Assembly: GCF_000829235.1 (NCBI RefSeq)
Contig: NZ_AP012549.1
Span: forward strand, 390,001-422,000
Direction of reading: 5' to 3'
DNA length: 32,000 nt
From: a cyanobacterium endosymbiont of Epithemia turgida isolate EtSB Lake Yunoko
GTDB lineage: Bacteria; Cyanobacteriota; Cyanobacteriia; Cyanobacteriales; Microcystaceae
Shown: positions 4,353-32,000 of the stretch, in pieces
Layout: every line of letters begins with the position of its first letter
How positions within the stretch are numbered: the stretch's first letter is position 1
Translations under genes and position numbers: made by a program
Notes under the pieces: generated by a model
What the model was told of the DNA's origin: nothing
The model's input: the letters and a program-made list of their open reading frames with translations, nothing else
The model's database searches: none

Positions 4353-4715
4353 ATGAATACTCCTTTCCTTTCCCCCGAAGACTTACCTTTGCAAAGTACG
4401 ACGGACTTCGGACTGCGACGGAAACTTGATGAAATCATCGGTAAATATTTCTACGAATCTTGTGATCGCTCACTCCAGACCTTATTGTCCCAATGTGGCT
4501 GGTATCTTACCAGTTCTTCTAATGTTTTAACTTTGGTGATTACCTGTCCTGATCATTCAACTAATTTACGCATTCTTAAATATGTTACAGCCCTGGGATA
4601 TTATTTAAAAAATTTTACTGAGAACGGAAAAATCCAGATATATCCTCCTGTGGGTGAAGGAACTTCCTTGAAAATTTTCGTCAAACAAGGACGAATCTAT
4701 CAAGACTCTCTTTAA
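4353..4715 (+). CDS. Hypothetical protein (120 aa), function unknown
   Basis: ATG-initiated ORF with balanced, non-low-complexity composition in an otherwise stop-rich spacer. It is followed immediately by a very strong intrinsic terminator. I do not recognise a family. Confidence 0.6.
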   Translation: MNTPFLSPEDLPLQSTTDFGLRRKLDEIIGKYFYESCDRSLQTLLSQCGWYLTSSSNVLTLVITCPDHSTNLRILKYVTALGYYLKNFTENGKIQIYPPVGEGTSLKIFVKQGRIYQDSL

Positions 4716-4775
4716 AAAAACCCTCAGTAAGATGGACAATGCCATCTTACTGAGGGTTTTTTTAAAGAGAGTCTT
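4702..4775. terminator. Bidirectional intrinsic terminator: 34-bp perfect inverted repeat with a 6-nt loop
   Basis: 4702-4735 pairs perfectly with 4742-4775 (checked base by base). The GC-containing core ccctcagtaagatgg/ccatcttactgaggg is flanked by A7 on the left and T7 on the right, giving a U-tract in either transcription direction. The left arm contains the last codons and the TAA stop (4713-4715) of the 120-aa ORF. Confidence 0.75.
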
Positions 4776-6090
4776 ATTACAATTATTAACACCACGAATT
4801 TTACGAGTAGTTGGTGATGATACGGTCAAACTAGACTATAAAATCAAAGTTAAATCTCAGCTAGGCTCAATAGACAATTATATTTTATTCTCTTTCTCCA
4901 ATAATTTTTATTCTAGTGACATCCATCTTGCTCAATGTACTGAAATCTCTCCTTGTAATACTCGTCAAACATTAATGCAGTGCTTGTCTGTAGTTATGGT
5001 AATAATTGTACACTTACCACCTCAACTTTGTTAGGATATTGTTAGTACTTACCCCATGGTTGCCAGGTTTTGCCGTAGAAATAACGTTTTAAGTTGCACA
5101 AAAAAACAACCATTTATCATTATTAATAATAATTTTTCTGGATACTAATTAGAAACTTTTATCTATTGGTCGAACCTAGTCAATAATTCTCCGTCCAGCT
5201 ATAATTAATCAATTATCATTGTAACTGCACATAGCTACCATATTCAATTATGGAGATAAATATCTATCTTTATTTGTAGGAATCTTTTTTAAAGAGCTAT
5301 AGCGAGTTATAATGATAATCTCTGAATAACCAAAGACTTTAAATCAATACAATAGTCTGGGTTGGATAGGTAGGAGTGAGCAAAAATTAGAGTAACACCT
5401 AATAAAAAAATATACTACATAACTATAATTAAAACCACTATCAAAATAGAGATTATTGCATACTCAGAAAATTTTCATTTTGACATGACGCCACAATAGT
5501 TATAGCTAACTTAATTAGTATAATATTGAGCTTTGTATTTTTCTAGATTAACTCTACTAACAAAAGATAGTATTCAAAAACTATAGATATTATCCTAAAT
5601 TAATTCTTTTTACTTGATCTTAAAAAGTAAGGAATAAAGATAATCATTAGAAAACAGTAAAAAAAATTAATGTCAGTTAAGTGAAAACAAAGACAATTAT
5701 TCCGGTGGAATACTTTCCCTTTTTTCTTAGTAACATGACTAACAAAGTGGGCGGAGATTATTAGGACTCAGAATCGGCTCGATTGTAGTCACTATGATAG
5801 ACCCTTAATGCTATAGGGTTTCTTTTTTTAATACTCAGCTTTGGAATATTTTCTTGTGGTTTAAGACACTGTATTCCATACTTGATACATTTATACTCTG
5901 GAGCTTGTTCAATAATTTTCCAATTTTTGGGGTATCAAGATGCCATATCCATTAAACTAGACTGAAACAAAGCATATTATCAATTAATTTTTCTATAGTT
6001 TCCACACCTCTGATACTCCTACAATATGGCACAATAGAAAAAGCTGACTATTATGATAGTCATGTAAAACTGAATTAACTAAAATTTTAA

Positions 6091-6960
6091 ATGATTCTGG
6101 TGAATGCAACTTTTGAAGGATCTACAAAGACTTGTCGCATTGTTTTTCCCCTCACTGCTATTGTCGGACAAGAAGAGATGAAATTGGACTTGCTACTCAA
6201 CGTCATTGACTCTAAAATCGGTGGTGTAATGATTATGCGTGATCGAAGTACTGGAAAATCTACCACTATTCTCGCGTTAGCCGACTTACTTTCTGAAATT
6301 AAGGTAGTAGCTGATGATCCCGTCAACTCTGACCAGAATGATCCTAACTTTATGAGTGAGCGCGTTCGTCAACAACTGAGGAAAAATATTCCTCTCCAAG
6401 TGGTTAGTAAAAAAGTTACGATGGTAGATCTTCCCTTGGGAGCCACTGAAGATAGAGTCTGTGGTTCAATTAATATTGAAAAGACCCTCTCACAGAAGGT
6501 GTGAAAGCTTTTGAACCACAGACTTTTGGCTAGAGCAAACTGTGGTATCATTTACATAGATAAGGTTAATCCTCGATGACCATCATGTAGATGTTCTCCT
6601 TGATTCGGCAGCTAGTGATTGAAATAAAGTAGAACGAAAAGGGGTTTCTATTCGTCATCCCGCACGGGTTTTCCTAGTTGGCTCAGGAAACCCAAAAGAG
6701 GGAGAATTACGACCTCAATTACTTGATTGTTTAGGAATGCACGCAGAAATTAATACCACAAAGGAACCGTAATTAAGGGTGAAAATTGTAGAACAACGTT
6801 CGTAATTTGACAAAAATCCTCAGAAATTCTATATTAGATACCAATTCCAACAAAAAGACCTGCGAAAACACTTAGTTGAAGCTCAAAAACTTCTCAAACA
6901 ATTGGAAATAGAAGAACATTAAGATAAAAAAAGTGTAAATTGAGTGAACTGTAAGAAGTT
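6091..6960 (+). pseudogene. chlI: Mg-chelatase subunit I (ChlI), multiply disrupted and 3'-truncated
   Basis: The N-terminal 137 codons read FPLTAIVGQEEMKLDLLLNVIDSKIGGVMIMRDRSTGKSTT...MVDLPLGATEDRVCGSINIEK, versus canonical ...IMGDRGTGKSTT..., so the P-loop glycines are already mutated. The rest of the ChlI sequence continues through at least two frameshifts (EGVKAFEP / LLARANCGIIYIDKVN / LDDHHVDVLLDSAAS). It also carries in-frame stops: TGA replacing Trp at 6620-6622, then EP*LRV, RS*FD and EEH*DKK. Similarity fades near 6960, before the AAA+ lid/C-terminal region. Confidence 0.9.
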
Positions 6961-7154: not shown

Positions 7155-7718
7155 ATGACTTCTGTAATCGCTGTAGAAAAAGAAAAGTTAGAAAATCCTC
7201 CGTTAGATATTCACTATTTGGGTGACCGCATTTTACGTCAACCAGCTAAACGTATTGCGAGAGTTGATAACTCTGTTCGCAAACTAATTAAAGAAATGCT
7301 ACAAACTATGTATAGTTCTCATGGAATCGGTTTGGCTGCAACTCAAGTAGGGATTCATAAACAATTAATTGTTATAGATTGTGCTCCTGATGATTCGGAC
7401 AATAAACCTGTGGTTTTAATTAATCCTAAAATTACCAGTATTTCTAAAGAATTATCTCTGTTTGAAGAAGGTTGTTTAAGTATTCCAGGAGTTTATTTAA
7501 ATGTTACTCGTCCTGAAATGATTGAAGTATCTTTTAAAGATGAACAAGGAAAACCTCGCAAGCGACAAGCAACTGATTTATTAGCACGGGTTATTCAACA
7601 TGAAATAGATCACCTCAATGGAGTGATGTTTGTTGATCGAGTTGGCAATGGTTTAGCATTAACTGAAGCTTTACAAAAGAATGGATTTTCTCCACAAGCT
7701 ATCAGACCGGTCAAATAA
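7155..7718 (+). CDS. def: Peptide deformylase
   Basis: 187-aa ORF with all three PDF motifs: GIGLAATQVG, EGCLSIPG and QHEIDHLNG. Confidence 0.95.
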   Translation: MTSVIAVEKEKLENPPLDIHYLGDRILRQPAKRIARVDNSVRKLIKEMLQTMYSSHGIGLAATQVGIHKQLIVIDCAPDDSDNKPVVLINPKITSISKELSLFEEGCLSIPGVYLNVTRPEMIEVSFKDEQGKPRKRQATDLLARVIQHEIDHLNGVMFVDRVGNGLALTEALQKNGFSPQAIRPVK

Positions 7719-8185
7719 CCAATAATTAATTGGTTACTAAAAAGAGGCAATTTTTTTATCTTTAAAAGTAGCTTACTATTGTCGGGGTTGTCCATTATTC
7801 TAATTGTAGACGTTAGTCCTATCTTTGAACTTTCGTCACAAATCTTTGATTGCTCAAAATGATCACAAGTATTATTTTAACCATTAGCACTTTCTCAACG
7901 GCTCTTTTTTTGTGCGCCGTGTGAGACACAAAAATCAACATAGAATAATCCCAACTCTTCCTCTAGAGCTAGGCTTAATGATGAGAGTGTCGATCTCGAC
8001 AATGTTAACTGTGAATGAGTTATATTTAAGGTCTAATTTACTATTAACAACTTAGCTTACAAAATATCAAGAGCAACTACTTAAACTCTCCCTAAAAATA
8101 CTATCAAAAACTACAGGAATCTTATCCTTTTGTCGTAAATCTATAAAAATATCTTTTATTTAAGTACTTTTGTCAAGATTTCACA

Positions 8186-10420
8186 CTATTTATTGACACG
8201 GTGAACATTGACTATATCACTTAAATTCCGAATTTGAGTGATAACATATTCTAATTGTTGACGATCACGAATATCAATTCGCAAGTTAATTATTGCAGGC
8301 TTACTACGACTGGTTTTTACCCCAGCATTACGAACATTAATGTTATTGTCACTGAGACGGGATAAAATATCCTTAAGGATTCCTACACGATCGAGAGCTT
8401 CAATAAAAATATCCACCGGATAGGTTTGGGTATATCTATTGTCTTCTGTGGGATTCCAACGAACTGGAATCAAGCGGTCACCAAGTACATCATTTATGTT
8501 AGAACATCCTTGACAGTGAATTGAAATACCTCTAGCCCCCTTTGTCACTATACCGATAATGGGTTCTCCGGGCAAAGGGTAACAGCAGCCAGCAATATTG
8601 TAAACTAACCCTTCAACGCCTATAATCGGAGATCTATTTTGCTTGACTGGACAAAAAGCAAGAGGAGAAGGGTTGGAAGCTCGAATTTTATCATTGGAAA
8701 TTTCTTCTTCTTGAACCTTAACAGTATTTTCTCTAAGTCGGTTAGCGACTTGGTTTAGGGTAATTTCTCCATACCCTAAAGCCGCTAGTAAGTCCTCAAC
8801 AGATTGATAATTAAAGCGTTCAGCGACACTTTGCATGGGATCAGATTTAAGCAAAGCATCTAAGCCATTTTTACCTAATTCCTTTTCTAACATCTCGCGT
8901 CCTCGGGAAAAATTTTCGTCTCGGTGTGATCGCTTATACCATTGACGAATACGATTTCGCGCACTGGGAGTCACTACAAAATTAAGCCAGTCTAAACTAG
9001 GGTGGGCGTTTTTCTGGGTAATAATTTCTACAATATCTCCATTATTAAGAGGAATATCTAAAACCGACCACTTTTCATTGACTCTTGCTCCTTTCATGTG
9101 GTTTCCGACTTCTGTATGGATACTATAGGCAAAATCAACGGGCGTAGCCCCTCGCGCTAGGGCAACTACATCTCCTTGAGGGGTAAAGACATAAACATCA
9201 TCATTAAAGAGATTATCTTTGAGAGTATCCACATATTCTTGAGCATCTTGGAGATCTTTTTGCCATTCGAGAAGTTGACGCAACCAGGTAAATTTTTTAT
9301 CCTCTTCAGAAAGAGTAGTATAGTTCGATTTCCCTGTCTCTTTATATTTCCAGTGAGCAGCGATCCCATATTCAGCTATGTGGTTCATCTCCAGGGTCCG
9401 AATTTGTACTTCTAGGGGACGACCCGTTAACCCCACTACCGTTGTATGAAGAGATTGATAACAGTTGGGTTTTGGTAGTCCAATATAATCCTTAAAACGC
9501 CCAGGAATTGGTTTAAATATGTCATGAACTACCGCTAAGGCCCGATAGCATTCCTCATTATTGTGAACAATGATTCTTAGAGCAGCAATGTCGTAAATTT
9601 GATGAAATCCTTTTTGCCGCCGCTGCATTTTATGATAAATTCCGTAAAGATGTTTGGGGCGAGCTTGTAAGTCCAACACTCGAATTCCAACACTTTCTAA
9701 GCGTTGACGTAAGGTTTCTTTTATTTTTTCTAAACGAGTTTCGCGATCACTACGTTTTTCGGCTACTAAGGATTGAATTTCTCGATAGGCTTCTGGTTCC
9801 AAATATTTAAAGGATAGATCTTCTAAGTCCCACTTCAACCGCCAAATTCCTAAACGATTTGCTAAAGGAGCAAAAATTTCTCTAGTTTCCAGGGCTATAC
9901 GTTTTTGCTTTTCTGGTTTAAGGTGTTCTAGGGTTCGCATATTGTGTAGGCGATCAGCTAATTTCACCACAATTACCCGAATATCTTTAGCCATTGCTAA
10001 GAACATCCGACGAAAATTTTCAGCCTGGTGTTCTGTTTTACTCGAAAAATTGAATTTAGATAGCTTAGTTACCCCTGCCACTAAGTTTTGTATTTCCTGC
10101 CCAAACTGTTCCTCAATTTGTTCTAGAGTGACATCCGTATCTTCTACTACGTCATGGAGAAATCCGGCCGCAATCATAGCTTTATCTCCACCTAAATCCC
10201 GCAATAACCCTGCTACAGCGATGGGATGTGCAATATATGGTTCTCCCGATTGACGATATTGTCCTTCATGTAGTTGATAGGCAAAATTGAACGCCCGACA
10301 GATTAGACCAATATCTTCATTATCTTGATCAGATTGATAGGTAACCAGAAATTGATTCAGCCAGTCAGGAAAAGATAGTTTAATATGTTCTGGTTCAGGA
10401 TAAGTAGCTACTAGGTTCAT
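8186..10420 (-). CDS. spoT: Bifunctional (p)ppGpp synthetase/hydrolase (RelA/SpoT homologue)
   Basis: It has an HD hydrolase domain (HDVVEDT), a RelA/SpoT synthetase domain (YRALAVVHDIFKPIPGRFKDYIGLPKPNCYQSLHTTV), a TGS region (VYVFTPQGDVVALARGATPVDFAY) and a C-terminal ACT domain. I placed the start at ATG 10420 (MNLVATYPEPEH); the ORF-track start at 10498 adds 26 hydrophobic residues of doubtful reality. Confidence 0.93.
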   Translation of the reverse strand: MNLVATYPEPEHIKLSFPDWLNQFLVTYQSDQDNEDIGLICRAFNFAYQLHEGQYRQSGEPYIAHPIAVAGLLRDLGGDKAMIAAGFLHDVVEDTDVTLEQIEEQFGQEIQNLVAGVTKLSKFNFSSKTEHQAENFRRMFLAMAKDIRVIVVKLADRLHNMRTLEHLKPEKQKRIALETREIFAPLANRLGIWRLKWDLEDLSFKYLEPEAYREIQSLVAEKRSDRETRLEKIKETLRQRLESVGIRVLDLQARPKHLYGIYHKMQRRQKGFHQIYDIAALRIIVHNNEECYRALAVVHDIFKPIPGRFKDYIGLPKPNCYQSLHTTVVGLTGRPLEVQIRTLEMNHIAEYGIAAHWKYKETGKSNYTTLSEEDKKFTWLRQLLEWQKDLQDAQEYVDTLKDNLFNDDVYVFTPQGDVVALARGATPVDFAYSIHTEVGNHMKGARVNEKWSVLDIPLNNGDIVEIITQKNAHPSLDWLNFVVTPSARNRIRQWYKRSHRDENFSRGREMLEKELGKNGLDALLKSDPMQSVAERFNYQSVEDLLAALGYGEITLNQVANRLRENTVKVQEEEISNDKIRASNPSPLAFCPVKQNRSPIIGVEGLVYNIAGCCYPLPGEPIIGIVTKGARGISIHCQGCSNINDVLGDRLIPVRWNPTEDNRYTQTYPVDIFIEALDRVGILKDILSRLSDNNINVRNAGVKTSRSKPAIINLRIDIRDRQQLEYVITQIRNLSDIVNVHRVNK

Positions 10421-10712
10421 AGAATAATGAATGGTTAACAGGGCGATAATAGACAGAACAAGACAACTATGGTAGCCGAAAGCAAAATTACTGTACAAAT
10501 TAACGATTGACTGCCGTTTAACGAAAAAAGTAATAAAAAAGGCGCCCAGAAACTAAATATGTGTTTTTTCTTTGTATCTTCTACAGAAAGACTAACTAAA
10601 AGAAATCAATGCTTGCTTGAATAGTTTTAGTCGAAGAAAAGGTTTAGTACCAATACAATTAACTTCTATGGTCTATCATAATTAAATATATCTTAGCTCG
10701 ATCCTGTTGTTT

Positions 10713-11060
10713 ATGTTATCGAAACCTCATCAAAAATTGTTAGCTTCCTTGATTACCCTCAAAGATCAAGTCATGATGAAGGACATAGACTCGAAACGAT
10801 TATCCCAAAATTTTCGAATGTTACAAGAAATTTTCCAAAATTATATTTTGGGAGCAACAACTGAGAATTTAGAGAATTCTGTTGTCTCTTCTTGGCAATC
10901 TATCCAGACTGAAATCCATCGGACGTTACGCTTGTTGATAACTGATTTTCTATTTTTACAGTCTTCCCACAAGCGAAGTACAGAAGAACAACGATTAGAA
11001 ATCGTGCTTGATCACATTGAAAAACTGATAGGTTATTGTCAAGTTATTCTAAATAGGTAA
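10713..11060 (+). CDS. Hypothetical protein (about 115 aa)
   Basis: ORF with the first ATG at 10713 (the track start 10707 is TTG). It is predicted helical with non-random composition and a convergent terminator-like hairpin downstream. It vaguely resembles small conserved cyanobacterial proteins, but I cannot name the family with confidence. Confidence 0.55.
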   Translation: MLSKPHQKLLASLITLKDQVMMKDIDSKRLSQNFRMLQEIFQNYILGATTENLENSVVSSWQSIQTEIHRTLRLLITDFLFLQSSHKRSTEEQRLEIVLDHIEKLIGYCQVILNR

Positions 11061-21589: not shown

Positions 21590-21949
21590 ACAACAAAAAC
21601 TATAAATAGTTTAACCTATAATGTACTATTATTTCATAAAATTATTTCTTGTATAAGAGATAAATGTAATTATTTTCAATGAAATTTTTTAAGGGGTTTT
21701 TTTAAAAAAATAAATTTGTCTATTTTAGAGATTATATAGTCATATTTATTATTTAATAGTAAACGGTTTAAATTAATAATAATTAACAAATAATGACCAC
21801 CATTAGTGTTATGATCTGAATCGGTTTAGTTTACCTGTATAAGAGAGTCTCAAAATTACCAGAAGACTTATCGTAAAAAAAAATTGTGAAATAGTTATGT
21901 TAATTATGTTAATCTTGTAGCCTTAGTTTTTAAATTCAGAGTAGAACTA

Positions 21950-22215
21950 AATGCTCACAATGACTATTTTCGTTAAAATTGCCTTGTCACCAATTAATTA
22001 TTGAAATAATTAATTTTAATTGGATTGAGTGGAACAAATAAAGATATTTAATGTTGATGTTTTTAAATATTTTTTTGAATATTATTTAAGTAACACTGCA
22101 CGGCATAGATCATAAAAAGATTACGCATCACTAGTACTTATAGTAATATTTTATTATTTCATGTTTTATTTAAATGTTTAAAATACTATTTTGATAATTT
22201 ATTTACCTTTGAAAG
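21950..22215 (+). pseudogene. Decayed partial duplicate of the priA 3' end (corresponds to priA about 21230-21565)
   Basis: In the core, 22010-22042 matches priA 21311-21343 at 31 of 33 nt and translates LILIGLSGTNK versus PriA LILIRLSGTNK. Upstream, ALSPINY* compares with VLSYPPYG and AHNDYFR with SHDYQGF. Collinear downstream anchors are ctgcac (21423 / 22096), atattttatta (21468 / 22146) and acctttga (21557 / 22205). Stops and frameshifts occur throughout. Boundaries are approximate. Confidence 0.55.
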
Positions 22216-23317
22216 TACAACTTGTAATCTAGAGAATATTTCACACTAAAATCTCACAAAAATTTCAAAAAATATTAAATGTGCAGAACTAAATAGACAA
22301 AATGAAATGATCTCATTTATCGTCTAGTAAATATTGCTCTTTTAGGCTTGTGACAATATGTCAATAAATAAAAATTAAAAGTTTTATATTGCAATATTTA
22401 TTAAATTTAAAAAATTAATGATCATTCAAAATAGCTAAAAATAATTATTATTTTCAGAATTAATTTAATAAAAAATTAGATAATAGAAAGTATACTGACA
22501 AATAGTTTTTATAAAAAAAAGTAATTTTAAAACTAGTTAGGTAGTCGCTAAGTACTACAATATATGGGATAAGAAACAAATTAAATCTCGACAATAGAAA
22601 TTACCTAAGATGACTGCTAATATTTAGCGAATCTACTTTGAGAACTAGTATTGCTGAAAGTTAATCTAAAATATTTAATGAATTAATCTTCTACTATTTT
22701 TTAGACTATAGAGTGTGCAATTATGATAGTGATCTCGAACATTATCTATCATCCAAAGCTTACACGCACTACAAAATGATAAAAAAAGTTAAACGAAAAC
22801 TAATTGATATGATTCTAGGTTTTTTATCTAAACAAATACCATTACGGATAATATCAGGTACTATTTAGTATAGGCAAATATTTTACTTAAAGTTTTTATA
22901 CTGGCGTGACTAGTAATTACTTGCTCCGTTAAGAATTACTATTGTGCTAGACTAACTAAAATGACAAGATCAGATAGAGGATCTATGAAAACTTTTAAGT
23001 TTAGAAGTAGTGACTAGTTATGAAACGAAAACACAAGGAATAAAACTAGAAAAAATCAAAAAAAGATAAATTGCTAATAATTAGACTTTTTATGATCGTT
23101 GACTTCAAATTCAATGGTAATTTTTTGATTGTGCTTAATAACTCTTAATATGTGAGAGAGTAAACTAAATACTTAATTCTAGATTAGGACTAAGAATTGA
23201 TTAAGTTTCCTAGAATATTGATTAACTTAGTCTAGTTATCGAGCATATCTGTCGACAAGAAAACCTAGTTGACTATTTGCTCGACGAATGTTTTATTTAT
23301 CCTAAATTTGTCAGAAA

Positions 23318-24375: not shown

Positions 24376-24892
24376 GAAATTTTAGAGTCTTGCCGCTCTA
24401 GTACTACTTTGTGGGGAATAGCAGCCTCAGTAGGGGTAATTGGTATTTTGGGGCTGAACTATCGAGCTATTCCAAAATTTACTTCCTCGTTGTTAGAGGT
24501 ACGGGTAGACTGAAATTTATTTCTCAAGGAATAGCTCTTCTATTCTATGGGGTTGTAAGTTCGGCTTATGAACTCTGTCTCTGGTCTAGTATTATTTTAA
24601 ACATCGGAGAAGGCTATGACAAATCCAATAAAGAAACGGGCAAATTAAGCATATTTCGCTGGAGGTAGAAGTTTCTTGGCAAAAGCATCGGATCGAATTT
24701 AAAGATGTCCAAGCAGCTATACGGACTGATATAAAATAAGGGTTAAATGTCACACGAAAACTGTATGTACGGCTGAAGCAATATAGAAAAGTTTCCCTGA
24801 TTCGCACAGGACAGTCTATTTCTTTTTCAAGACTAGAAAACCAAGAGGCTGAATTGGCTTGTTTTTGGGGAGTTCCCTTCTAGGGCTTATAA
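24376..24892 (+). pseudogene. ycf4: Photosystem I assembly protein Ycf4, frameshifted with premature stops
   Basis: The Ycf4 sequence is spread over three frames. The segments are EILESCRSSTTLWGIAASVGVIGILG (frame of 24376), GAELSSYSKIYFL...FISQGIALLFYGVVSSAYELCLWSSIILNIGEGYDKSNKETGKLSIFRW (frame of 24411) and HRIEFKDVQAAIRTDIK*GLNVTRKLYVRLKQYRKVSLIRTGQSISFSRLENQEAELACFWGVPF*GL (frame of 24707). Two Glu codons are stops (TAA 24737-24739, TAG 24881-24883), and a stop (24373-24375) lies upstream with no usable start. For comparison, canonical Ycf4 reads ...PQGLVMGLYG...[30 protein letters not shown]...IRVDIKEGLNP...PLTRVGQPL...LENQGAELARFLGVPLEGL. Confidence 0.88.
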
Positions 24893-31533: not shown

Positions 31534-31596
31534 CTATGATTTGAAAGTTTCCTGTTTAAGAATATATAACTAACTATCAACTCTACACAGTCAATA

Positions 31597-32000
31597 ATGA
31601 GGTTACTTTGTCCAAAATACTCAACATCATCAGAAGTTCCTCTATTTATCTATTTGCCAGGAATGGATGGAACGGGGAAGTTATTACATCGACAAGTTAA
31701 AAAATTGACTCAATTTTTTAACGTTCGTTGTTTAGCAATTCCCCAAAATGATTGTAGCAACTGGAATACTTTAGTTTCTCAAACCATTTGTTTAATTGAA
31801 AAAGAACTCAAGCATCATCCTCAATTTTCTTCGGTTTATTTATGTGGAGAATCTTTTGGAGGATGTTTAGCGATCAAACTTGCTCTAAAGTCTCCTGAAT
31901 TAATTAAAAAAATGGTTTTAATCAATCCTGCTTCATCTTTTACACAACGTCCTTTATTAAGTTGGGGAAGTGAATTAATTCAATGGGTACCGGAGATTCT
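31597..32000 (+). CDS. Alpha/beta-fold hydrolase (5' part; runs off the window end)
   Basis: Open frame from ATG 31597 to the window edge: MRLLCPKYSTSSEVPLFIYLPGMDGTGKLLHRQVKKL...VYLCGESFGGCLAIKLALKSPELIKKMVLINPASSF. It has the nucleophile elbow GESFGG and an LPG(M/I)DGTG oxyanion region like the hydrolase domain of plant/cyanobacterial PES-type esterases. It is absent from the ORF track because no stop is reached. Confidence 0.8.
   Translation, partial: MRLLCPKYSTSSEVPLFIYLPGMDGTGKLLHRQVKKLTQFFNVRCLAIPQNDCSNWNTLVSQTICLIEKELKHHPQFSSVYLCGESFGGCLAIKLALKSPELIKKMVLINPASSFTQRPLLSWGSELIQWVPEI

Follow-up and report, generated by a model that had tools for sequence, protein, structure and literature searches.

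Does the cyanobacterial endosymbiont of Epithemia turgida still carry a working chlI, the gene for the ATPase subunit of Mg-chelatase? In the stretch of its genome analyzed here (32 kb in length, referred to below as the window), a chlI-like sequence is present in broken form. The original prediction read this sequence as a dead gene and took the accompanying loss of chlorophyll synthesis to be odd for a phototroph. The loss itself is supported by published tables of the chlorophyll a (Chl-a) pathway, but the sense of oddity was misplaced, as the organism is a spheroid body (SB) and not a phototroph. Epithemia spheroid bodies are N2-fixing relatives of Rippkaea and Crocosphaera in which the photosystems have been lost and chlorophyll autofluorescence is absent (PMC5638926). 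All ten genes of the Chl-a pathway are dysfunctional in the E. turgida SB, and 9 of the 10, chlI among them, are intact in the SB of Rhopalodia gibberula (PMC5638926). In the SBs of E. turgida and E. adnata alike, the genes of this pathway are either pseudogenes or missing (PMC5638926; PMC12903740, supplementary material). We are highly confident that positions 6100 to 6922 of the window hold the nonfunctional relic of the single ancestral chlI of a nonphotosynthetic, N2-fixing Epithemia endosymbiont, a gene that presumably decayed after the photosystems were lost. The loss of chlI in SBs of the E. turgida and E. adnata type has already been published, and the relic is genuine but ordinary; only its strain-private lesions and the signature suggestive of a templated mutation are mildly new.

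Identity and position of the chlI relic

The chlI locus and the neighbor that anchors it are laid out as follows, in coordinates of the window.

6091-6504, + strand: longest surviving open reading frame (ORF) of the chlI relic, an N-terminal AAA+ fragment of 137 codons
6100-6922, + strand: pseudogene of chlI, which encodes the Mg-chelatase ATPase subunit; it extends from the former start codon to the ancestral stop TAA
7155-7718, + strand: def (peptide deformylase), intact, the conserved downstream neighbor that anchors the synteny; pN = 0 against the E. adnata SB

The relic, for which the original prediction had given the span 6091 to 6960, thus begins and ends inside that span, and it keeps 273 of 358 ancestral codons (76%). 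The product of the 137-codon ORF matched residues 2 to 133 of Synechocystis ChlI (PDB 6l8d_A) in a phmmer search with E = 2e-52. With the R. gibberula SB ChlI, which is intact, as the tblastn query, residues 1 to 156 of this protein were recovered in frame +1 and residues 157 to 271 in frame +2, with a joint E of 1.7e-104. Sequence homology to ChlI therefore extends over the AAA+ module, and six-frame translation likewise revealed that the ChlI reading carries on in further frames beyond the 137-codon ORF. Residues 272 to 358 of the query had no tblastn match in the 32-kb window, and no further significant ChlI match was found beyond the relic in these 32 kb. A Pfam search with the 137-amino-acid ORF gave no Mg-chelatase match and returned only a chance hit to Hpr_kinase_C (E = 0.024), which we rejected. 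Because Pfam is blind to this fragment, the evidence for assigning it to ChlI comes from phmmer, tblastn, and the DNA alignment. Over residues 1 to 267, the relic is homologous to the ChlI/BchI AAA+ motors (Synechocystis slr1030, PDB 6l8d; R. capsulatus BchI, PDB 1g8p). Unlike these active proteins, it has no continuous ORF, its longest reading of 137 codons standing in place of one of approximately 350 to 360; its Walker A motif, Walker B motif, and LLDRFG arginine are mutated, and its lid domain is deleted.

The genes of the window match the corresponding locus of the Rhopalodia SBs in order and orientation. In the SBs of both R. gibberula and R. gibba, this locus reads thrS(-), ABC ATPase(-), orf120(+), chlI(+), def(+), crcB(-), spoT(-), and M16 peptidase(-), with crcB called at the R. 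gibberula SB locus and not at that of the R. gibba SB. At the orthologous position, both have an intact chlI, of 358 codons in the R. gibberula SB (RGRSB_0198, 358 aa) and 353 codons in the R. gibba SB (JJP05_05780, 353 aa). As the gene order around the relic is the same as in the Rhopalodia SBs, the relic is the positional orthologue of their only chlI and not a spare copy. DNA identity to the Rhopalodia SBs is approximately 79 to 83% across the locus, and the conceptual translation of the relic has 78% protein identity. In contrast to the relic, the Rhopalodia SB genes are uninterrupted and have all motifs intact, although the Rhopalodia SBs are equally nonphotosynthetic. The neighborhood of chlI is different in the free-living Rippkaea orientalis PCC 8801.

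A much closer relative is the SB of Epithemia adnata 19Bon2, whose chromosome is CP076462 (PMC11131595). The window is 98.1% identical to CP076462 over 17.7 kb, and the def protein (7155-7718) is identical in sequence to one encoded there. This chromosome also carries a chlI pseudogene (KPI85_05410) at the same locus and in the same gene order. The window has a G+C content of approximately 35%, and intact coding sequence makes up approximately 65% of it. This composition agrees with that of the published spheroid-body genomes, which have 33 to 34% G+C and approximately 0.6 genes per kb (PMC11131595).

Immediately upstream of chlI lies a 1.4-kb noncoding stretch (4716-6099), which is noncoding in the Rhopalodia SBs too, with approximately 79% identity. 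In Rippkaea, chlI is preceded by a CYP38-like PPIase, of which this stretch might be a remnant.

Shared and private lesions

Lesions were read codon by codon in a five-way DNA alignment in which the window was set beside the R. gibberula SB, the R. gibba SB, and the E. adnata 19Bon2 SB, the last represented by two assemblies. A lesion is called shared if it is also present in the E. adnata SB and private if it occurs in the window strain only.

6100, + strand: start codon ATG changed to GTG; shared
6238-6240, + strand: Walker A G47R (CGT); private
6247-6249, + strand: Walker A G50S (AGT); private
~6491-6492, + strand: +2 insertion 'CA', frameshift; private
~6518, + strand: +1 insertion, frameshift; shared
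6562-6564, + strand: Walker B E154K, YVDEVN changed to YIDKVN; shared
After 6571 (6570-6573), + strand: -2 deletion, frameshift at codon 157; shared
6620-6622, + strand: nonsense codon, W174 TGG changed to TGA; shared
6728-6730, + strand: R210C in the invariant LLDRFG motif; shared
6770-6772, + strand: nonsense codon TAA at codon 224; shared
6803-6805, + strand: nonsense codon, E235 GAA changed to TAA; shared
Junction 6901|6902, + strand: 255-bp in-frame deletion of codons 268 to 352; shared
6902-6922, + strand: last six ancestral codons (LEIEEH) and the ancestral stop TAA (6920-6922), kept; aligned with ...LEMEEH* of the R. gibberula SB ChlI

In total, the relic is disrupted by three indels that shift the frame, three in-frame nonsense codons, and one 255-bp deletion, and six disabling lesions are common to the window and the E. 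adnata SB. The indels (+2, +1, and -2) bear out the earlier view that the ChlI reading passes through three frames. That view had also counted at least five in-frame stops. Stops are indeed present and interrupt chlI, but only three are true nonsense codons, the others in the earlier count being out-of-frame consequences of the frameshifts. The out-of-frame TGA that ends the 137-codon ORF is there because of the strain-specific +2 insertion. The structure of this ORF is not kept in the E. adnata SB, which lacks the +2 and has +5 and -5 indels of its own.

The catalytic motifs of the AAA+ module have also been destroyed. The Walker A region of the relic reads MIMRDRSTGKST, with RDRSTGKST in place of GDRGTGKST, and we could confirm the prediction that the longest surviving piece (137 codons, 6091-6504) has its Walker A glycines replaced, by G47R and G50S. 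The columns of G47 and G50 are at least 99% conserved among 119 ChlI sequences, and codons 47 and 50 remain GGT/GGA in the E. adnata SB and in both Rhopalodia SBs. At Walker B (hhhhDE, YVDEVN), E154K likewise falls in a column that is at least 99% conserved in the 119 ChlI sequences. The LLDRFG motif reads LLDCLG (R210C, F211L); by analogy with BchI, we regard its arginine, R210, as the arginine finger. Alignment of 119 full-length ChlI proteins gave 160 columns with at least 99% conservation outside the deletion; the relic departs from 25 of these, and a further 30 family-invariant residues went with the 255-bp deletion.

The deletion took out the C-terminal helical lid domain (AAA_lid_2, with sensor 2), which is represented by PF17863 in intact ChlI homologues. 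The 3' third had been described as unrecognizable; instead, codons 268 to 352 are cleanly missing, and survival of the last six codons and the stop indicates that this part was deleted and not eroded. GGTT (4 bp) is readable at both ancestral breakpoints, though later substitutions blur the junction. When the GTDB species-representative genomes were searched for an exact copy of the deletion junction, there was no match.

The E. adnata SB pseudogene (KPI85_05410, CP076462) shares with the relic the +1 and -2 indels, the three nonsense codons, the 255-bp deletion, E154K, and R210C. The two differ by approximately 3%: the relic lacks the GTCGC +5/-5 change and has the private G47R/G50S replacements and the +2 insertion. 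Private substitutions are also present both in the window and in the E. adnata SB. The lesions of the relic thus sort into ancestral and strain-private sets, the former presumably being the older, and one of the frameshifts has a recognizable mutational signature.

The GTCGC change, private to the E. adnata SB, consists of a gain at ~6115 and a loss at 6134-6138. In E. adnata 19Bon2, this pentamer is inserted behind CTTTTG, 18 nt upstream of the site before ATTG from which it has been deleted, and its displacement shifts the frame of 18 nt. The gain and the loss could be one complex event and not two independent indels.

Neutral decay and alternative explanations

Compared with its counterpart in the E. 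adnata SB, the relic differed at 25 of 815 aligned sites (3.1%). These differences were distributed over the three codon positions as 8/8/9 and gave a pN/pS of 1.02, a small-sample value resting on 25 differences. In the same comparison, eleven intact neighbor genes had a pS of 0.026, a pN of 0.005, and a pN/pS of 0.20, and 4.3% of sites differed in the spacer downstream of the relic. When amino acid replacements were polarized with Rippkaea, 39 fell on the window branch versus 5 on the R. gibberula SB branch; between the intact chlI genes of the R. gibberula and R. gibba SBs, dN/dS was approximately 0.12. These results show that the chlI relic drifts neutrally between both Epithemia endosymbionts. 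It has the hallmarks of a unitary pseudogene, occupying the place of a functional orthologue and being free of purifying selection, with pN/pS at ~1 and all codon positions evenly hit. With its frameshifts, nonsense codons, deletion, and destroyed catalytic motifs, and a pN/pS of ~1, chlI at this locus is dead, as originally proposed.

The frameshifts and stops might instead be artifacts of sequencing or assembly, and the underlying chlI intact, since indel errors are possible in low-complexity, AT-rich genomes built from metagenomic reads; the original prediction had allowed for this. However, a Logan contig from SRR29904087 was 100% identical to the window over 12,973 bp, and the same 137-amino-acid ORF was predicted in the read assembly SRR29904083. 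The Logan contig may share reads with the window genome, and the E. adnata strain is therefore the main source of independent data. Both assemblies of E. adnata 19Bon2 derive from a single Illumina MiSeq run, SRR25945676, and therefore count as one independent strain. In that separately sequenced strain, the six disabling lesions recur, including the 255-bp deletion and the three nonsense substitutions; in addition, the even spread over codon positions and the 25 replaced invariant residues are beyond what indel errors can yield. Lesions that are identical in independent assemblies and present in a separately sequenced strain exclude assembly error, to which we assign practically no chance. 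A redundant paralogue had been allowed for as well: a second intact chlI elsewhere, together with chlD and chlH, would keep Mg-chelatase working. Our ChlI search within the strain's own genome covers the 32-kb window, which gives this reading some room. Against it, the relic sits at the exact position of the sole chlI of the Rhopalodia SBs, and the best ChlI matches listed from a collection of 5.8 billion proteins, which includes read assemblies of the window strain and the E. adnata SB genome, were Rhopalodia SB proteins at 78% identity. None of the best 120 ChlI matches lay on the 2.78-Mb E. adnata SB chromosome. In a scan of GTDB-based genomes with the R. gibberula SB ChlI, the R. gibba SB was the sole endosymbiont among the 80 loci listed. 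The published orthology tables have one chlI row, in which the gene is broken in the SBs of both E. adnata (EaSB; KPI85-05410) and E. turgida (EtSB; ETSB-0249), both of which also lack chlD and have a broken chlH (PMC12903740, supplementary file 3), and these endosymbionts have neither photosystems nor chlorophyll autofluorescence (PMC5638926). The entry for E. turgida corresponds to the pseudogene ETSB_0249 of AP012549, listed as broken in the same file (PMC12903740, supplementary file 3). Three lines bear on a second chlI in the window strain: the E. adnata SB genome (98% identical), the published tables, and the absence of listed ChlI matches above 78%. They make such a copy very unlikely, and a paralogue that maintains Mg-chelatase is correspondingly improbable.

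It might also be asked whether the 137-codon 5' ORF, or RNA from the relic, has been retained for a new function, for example, as a truncated AAA+ N-domain protein or a regulatory transcript. The ORF is long, has an ATG start, and is predicted by gene callers in read assemblies; the sequence upstream of its start is well conserved among SBs and contains weak promoter-like matches; and intact Chl genes persist in some SBs, possibly for regulatory reasons (PMC12903740). Several observations nevertheless make a retained function highly improbable. The pN/pS of 1.02 and the evenly hit codon positions are those of a sequence under no constraint, and the E. adnata SB has not kept the ORF, which there contains +5/-5 indels and has another 3' end. 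The P-loop glycines are replaced in the window strain only. Promoter-like matches near the relic numbered 8, versus 5.1 +/- 2.4 in shuffled sequences, and so were not above expectation. Published RNA-seq covers the R. gibba SB only.

The reading of 6100-6922 as the relic of a single ancestral chlI also allows the decay to be placed in time. Its onset lies before the split of the two Epithemia strains and after their divergence from the Rhopalodia SBs. Relative to the R. gibberula SB, the relic had an excess of nonsynonymous change, with a dN of 0.10 observed and approximately 0.04 expected, at a neighbor dS of 0.30. As an order-of-magnitude estimate, this excess suggests that inactivation occurred approximately 0.06 to 0.07 neutral substitutions per site ago. 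On a crude scale in the same units, the split from the E. adnata SB lies at ~0.015 and that from the Rhopalodia SBs at ~0.15. This suggests, again to an order of magnitude, that the inactivation is several times older than the E. adnata SB split and less than half as old as the Rhopalodia split.

Relaxed selection after the loss of photosynthesis would account for this history. Once the photosystems had been lost in the endosymbiont, Mg-chelatase would have been free of selection, and chlI would have been disabled on the branch that gave rise to endosymbionts of the E. turgida and E. adnata type, drifting neutrally from then on. Frameshifts, nonsense codons, active-site replacements, and the 255-bp deletion would have accumulated in it, probably leaving a relic without a working protein product and protoporphyrin IX for heme only. 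We propose that the relic persists because deletion is slow in the mobile-element-free spheroid-body genomes. As a case of gene decay it is clean and datable, in an endosymbiont that is young, organelle-like, and N2-fixing. A more interesting question is why the Rhopalodia SBs and some Epithemia SBs, which have no photosystems, retain an intact chlI and most Chl genes.

Hairpin-linked frameshifts and further features of the window

The shared +1 frameshift lies within an inverted repeat.

Arms 6456-6469 and 6511-6524, + strand: perfect 14-bp inverted repeat in the chlI relic; the 3' arm holds the shared +1 frameshift

The frameshift is a complex change of TG to ACA, by which the ancestral TTGAACC-TG-GACT became TTGAACC-ACA-GACT; the ancestral codons at this place encode E-P-G-L, which is invariant in ChlI. 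At every position, the derived arm (6511-6524) matches the reverse complement of 6456-6469, which lies 41 nt upstream. Both Rhopalodia SBs show the ancestral state of the arm, with 11 of 13 positions complementary. An imperfect repeat has thus been made perfect by a complex change (TTGAACCTGGACT to TTGAACCACAGACT), as in a quasi-palindrome mutation, which suggests that the shared +1 frameshift at ~6518 arose as a templated (strand-switch) mutation of this kind. The private +2 insertion 'CA' lengthens a small hairpin (CTCTCACA / TGTGAAAG) and may represent a second templated event, for which the case is weaker than for the +1.

Quasi-palindrome (template-switch) mutations have reportedly been described in Escherichia coli, phage T4, and yeast, by Ripley in 1982 and by Lovett and co-workers. 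The change in the relic resembles these mutations in that an imperfect repeat has been perfected, here to 14 bp, with a +1 frameshift; it differs from them in that the mechanism is read from the sequence alone. Spheroid-body genomes contain many pseudogenes and no mobile elements. Template switching may have made the +1 at 6518 and perhaps the +2, and might, if general, be a major source of gene-killing frameshifts in SBs; we advance this proposal tentatively and regard it as rather doubtful. If it were true, the relic genes of SBs would constitute a natural mutation-accumulation record of hairpin-templated mutation.

A second photosynthesis-related pseudogene, a relic of ycf4 (photosystem I assembly factor), is present in the window at 24381-24880 (+). 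Its stop-free piece at 24402-24665 matches Pfam Ycf4 (PF02392) with E = 1.8e-18, and its C-terminal part (EVSWQKHRIEF...CFWGVPF) is in another frame and has internal stops. Between def and spoT lies a relic of crcB (fluoride channel) at ~7998-8125 (-), where residues 1 to 47 of the R. gibberula SB CrcB (locus 8212-8595) match in two frames with stops (tblastn); approximately 290 bp are missing relative to the R. gibberula SB locus.

tRNA and Rfam scans across the window found nothing. A 1.7-kb gap without a long ORF spans 21590-23317, with a G+C content of 0.23 in 22001-23000; it gave no Pfam, Rfam, or tRNA match and is probably a fully eroded gene remnant. At the 3' end of the window, 31570-32000 (+) holds an alpha/beta-hydrolase ORF (Hydrolase_4, E = 9e-9) that continues past the end. 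Two short ORFs belong to no Pfam family: orf120 (4353-4715, +, 120 aa), with pN = 0 against the E. adnata SB, and orf117 (10707-11060, +, 117 aa), with pN/pS = 0.18 in the same comparison. Both are under purifying selection, and both are called in the Rhopalodia SBs.
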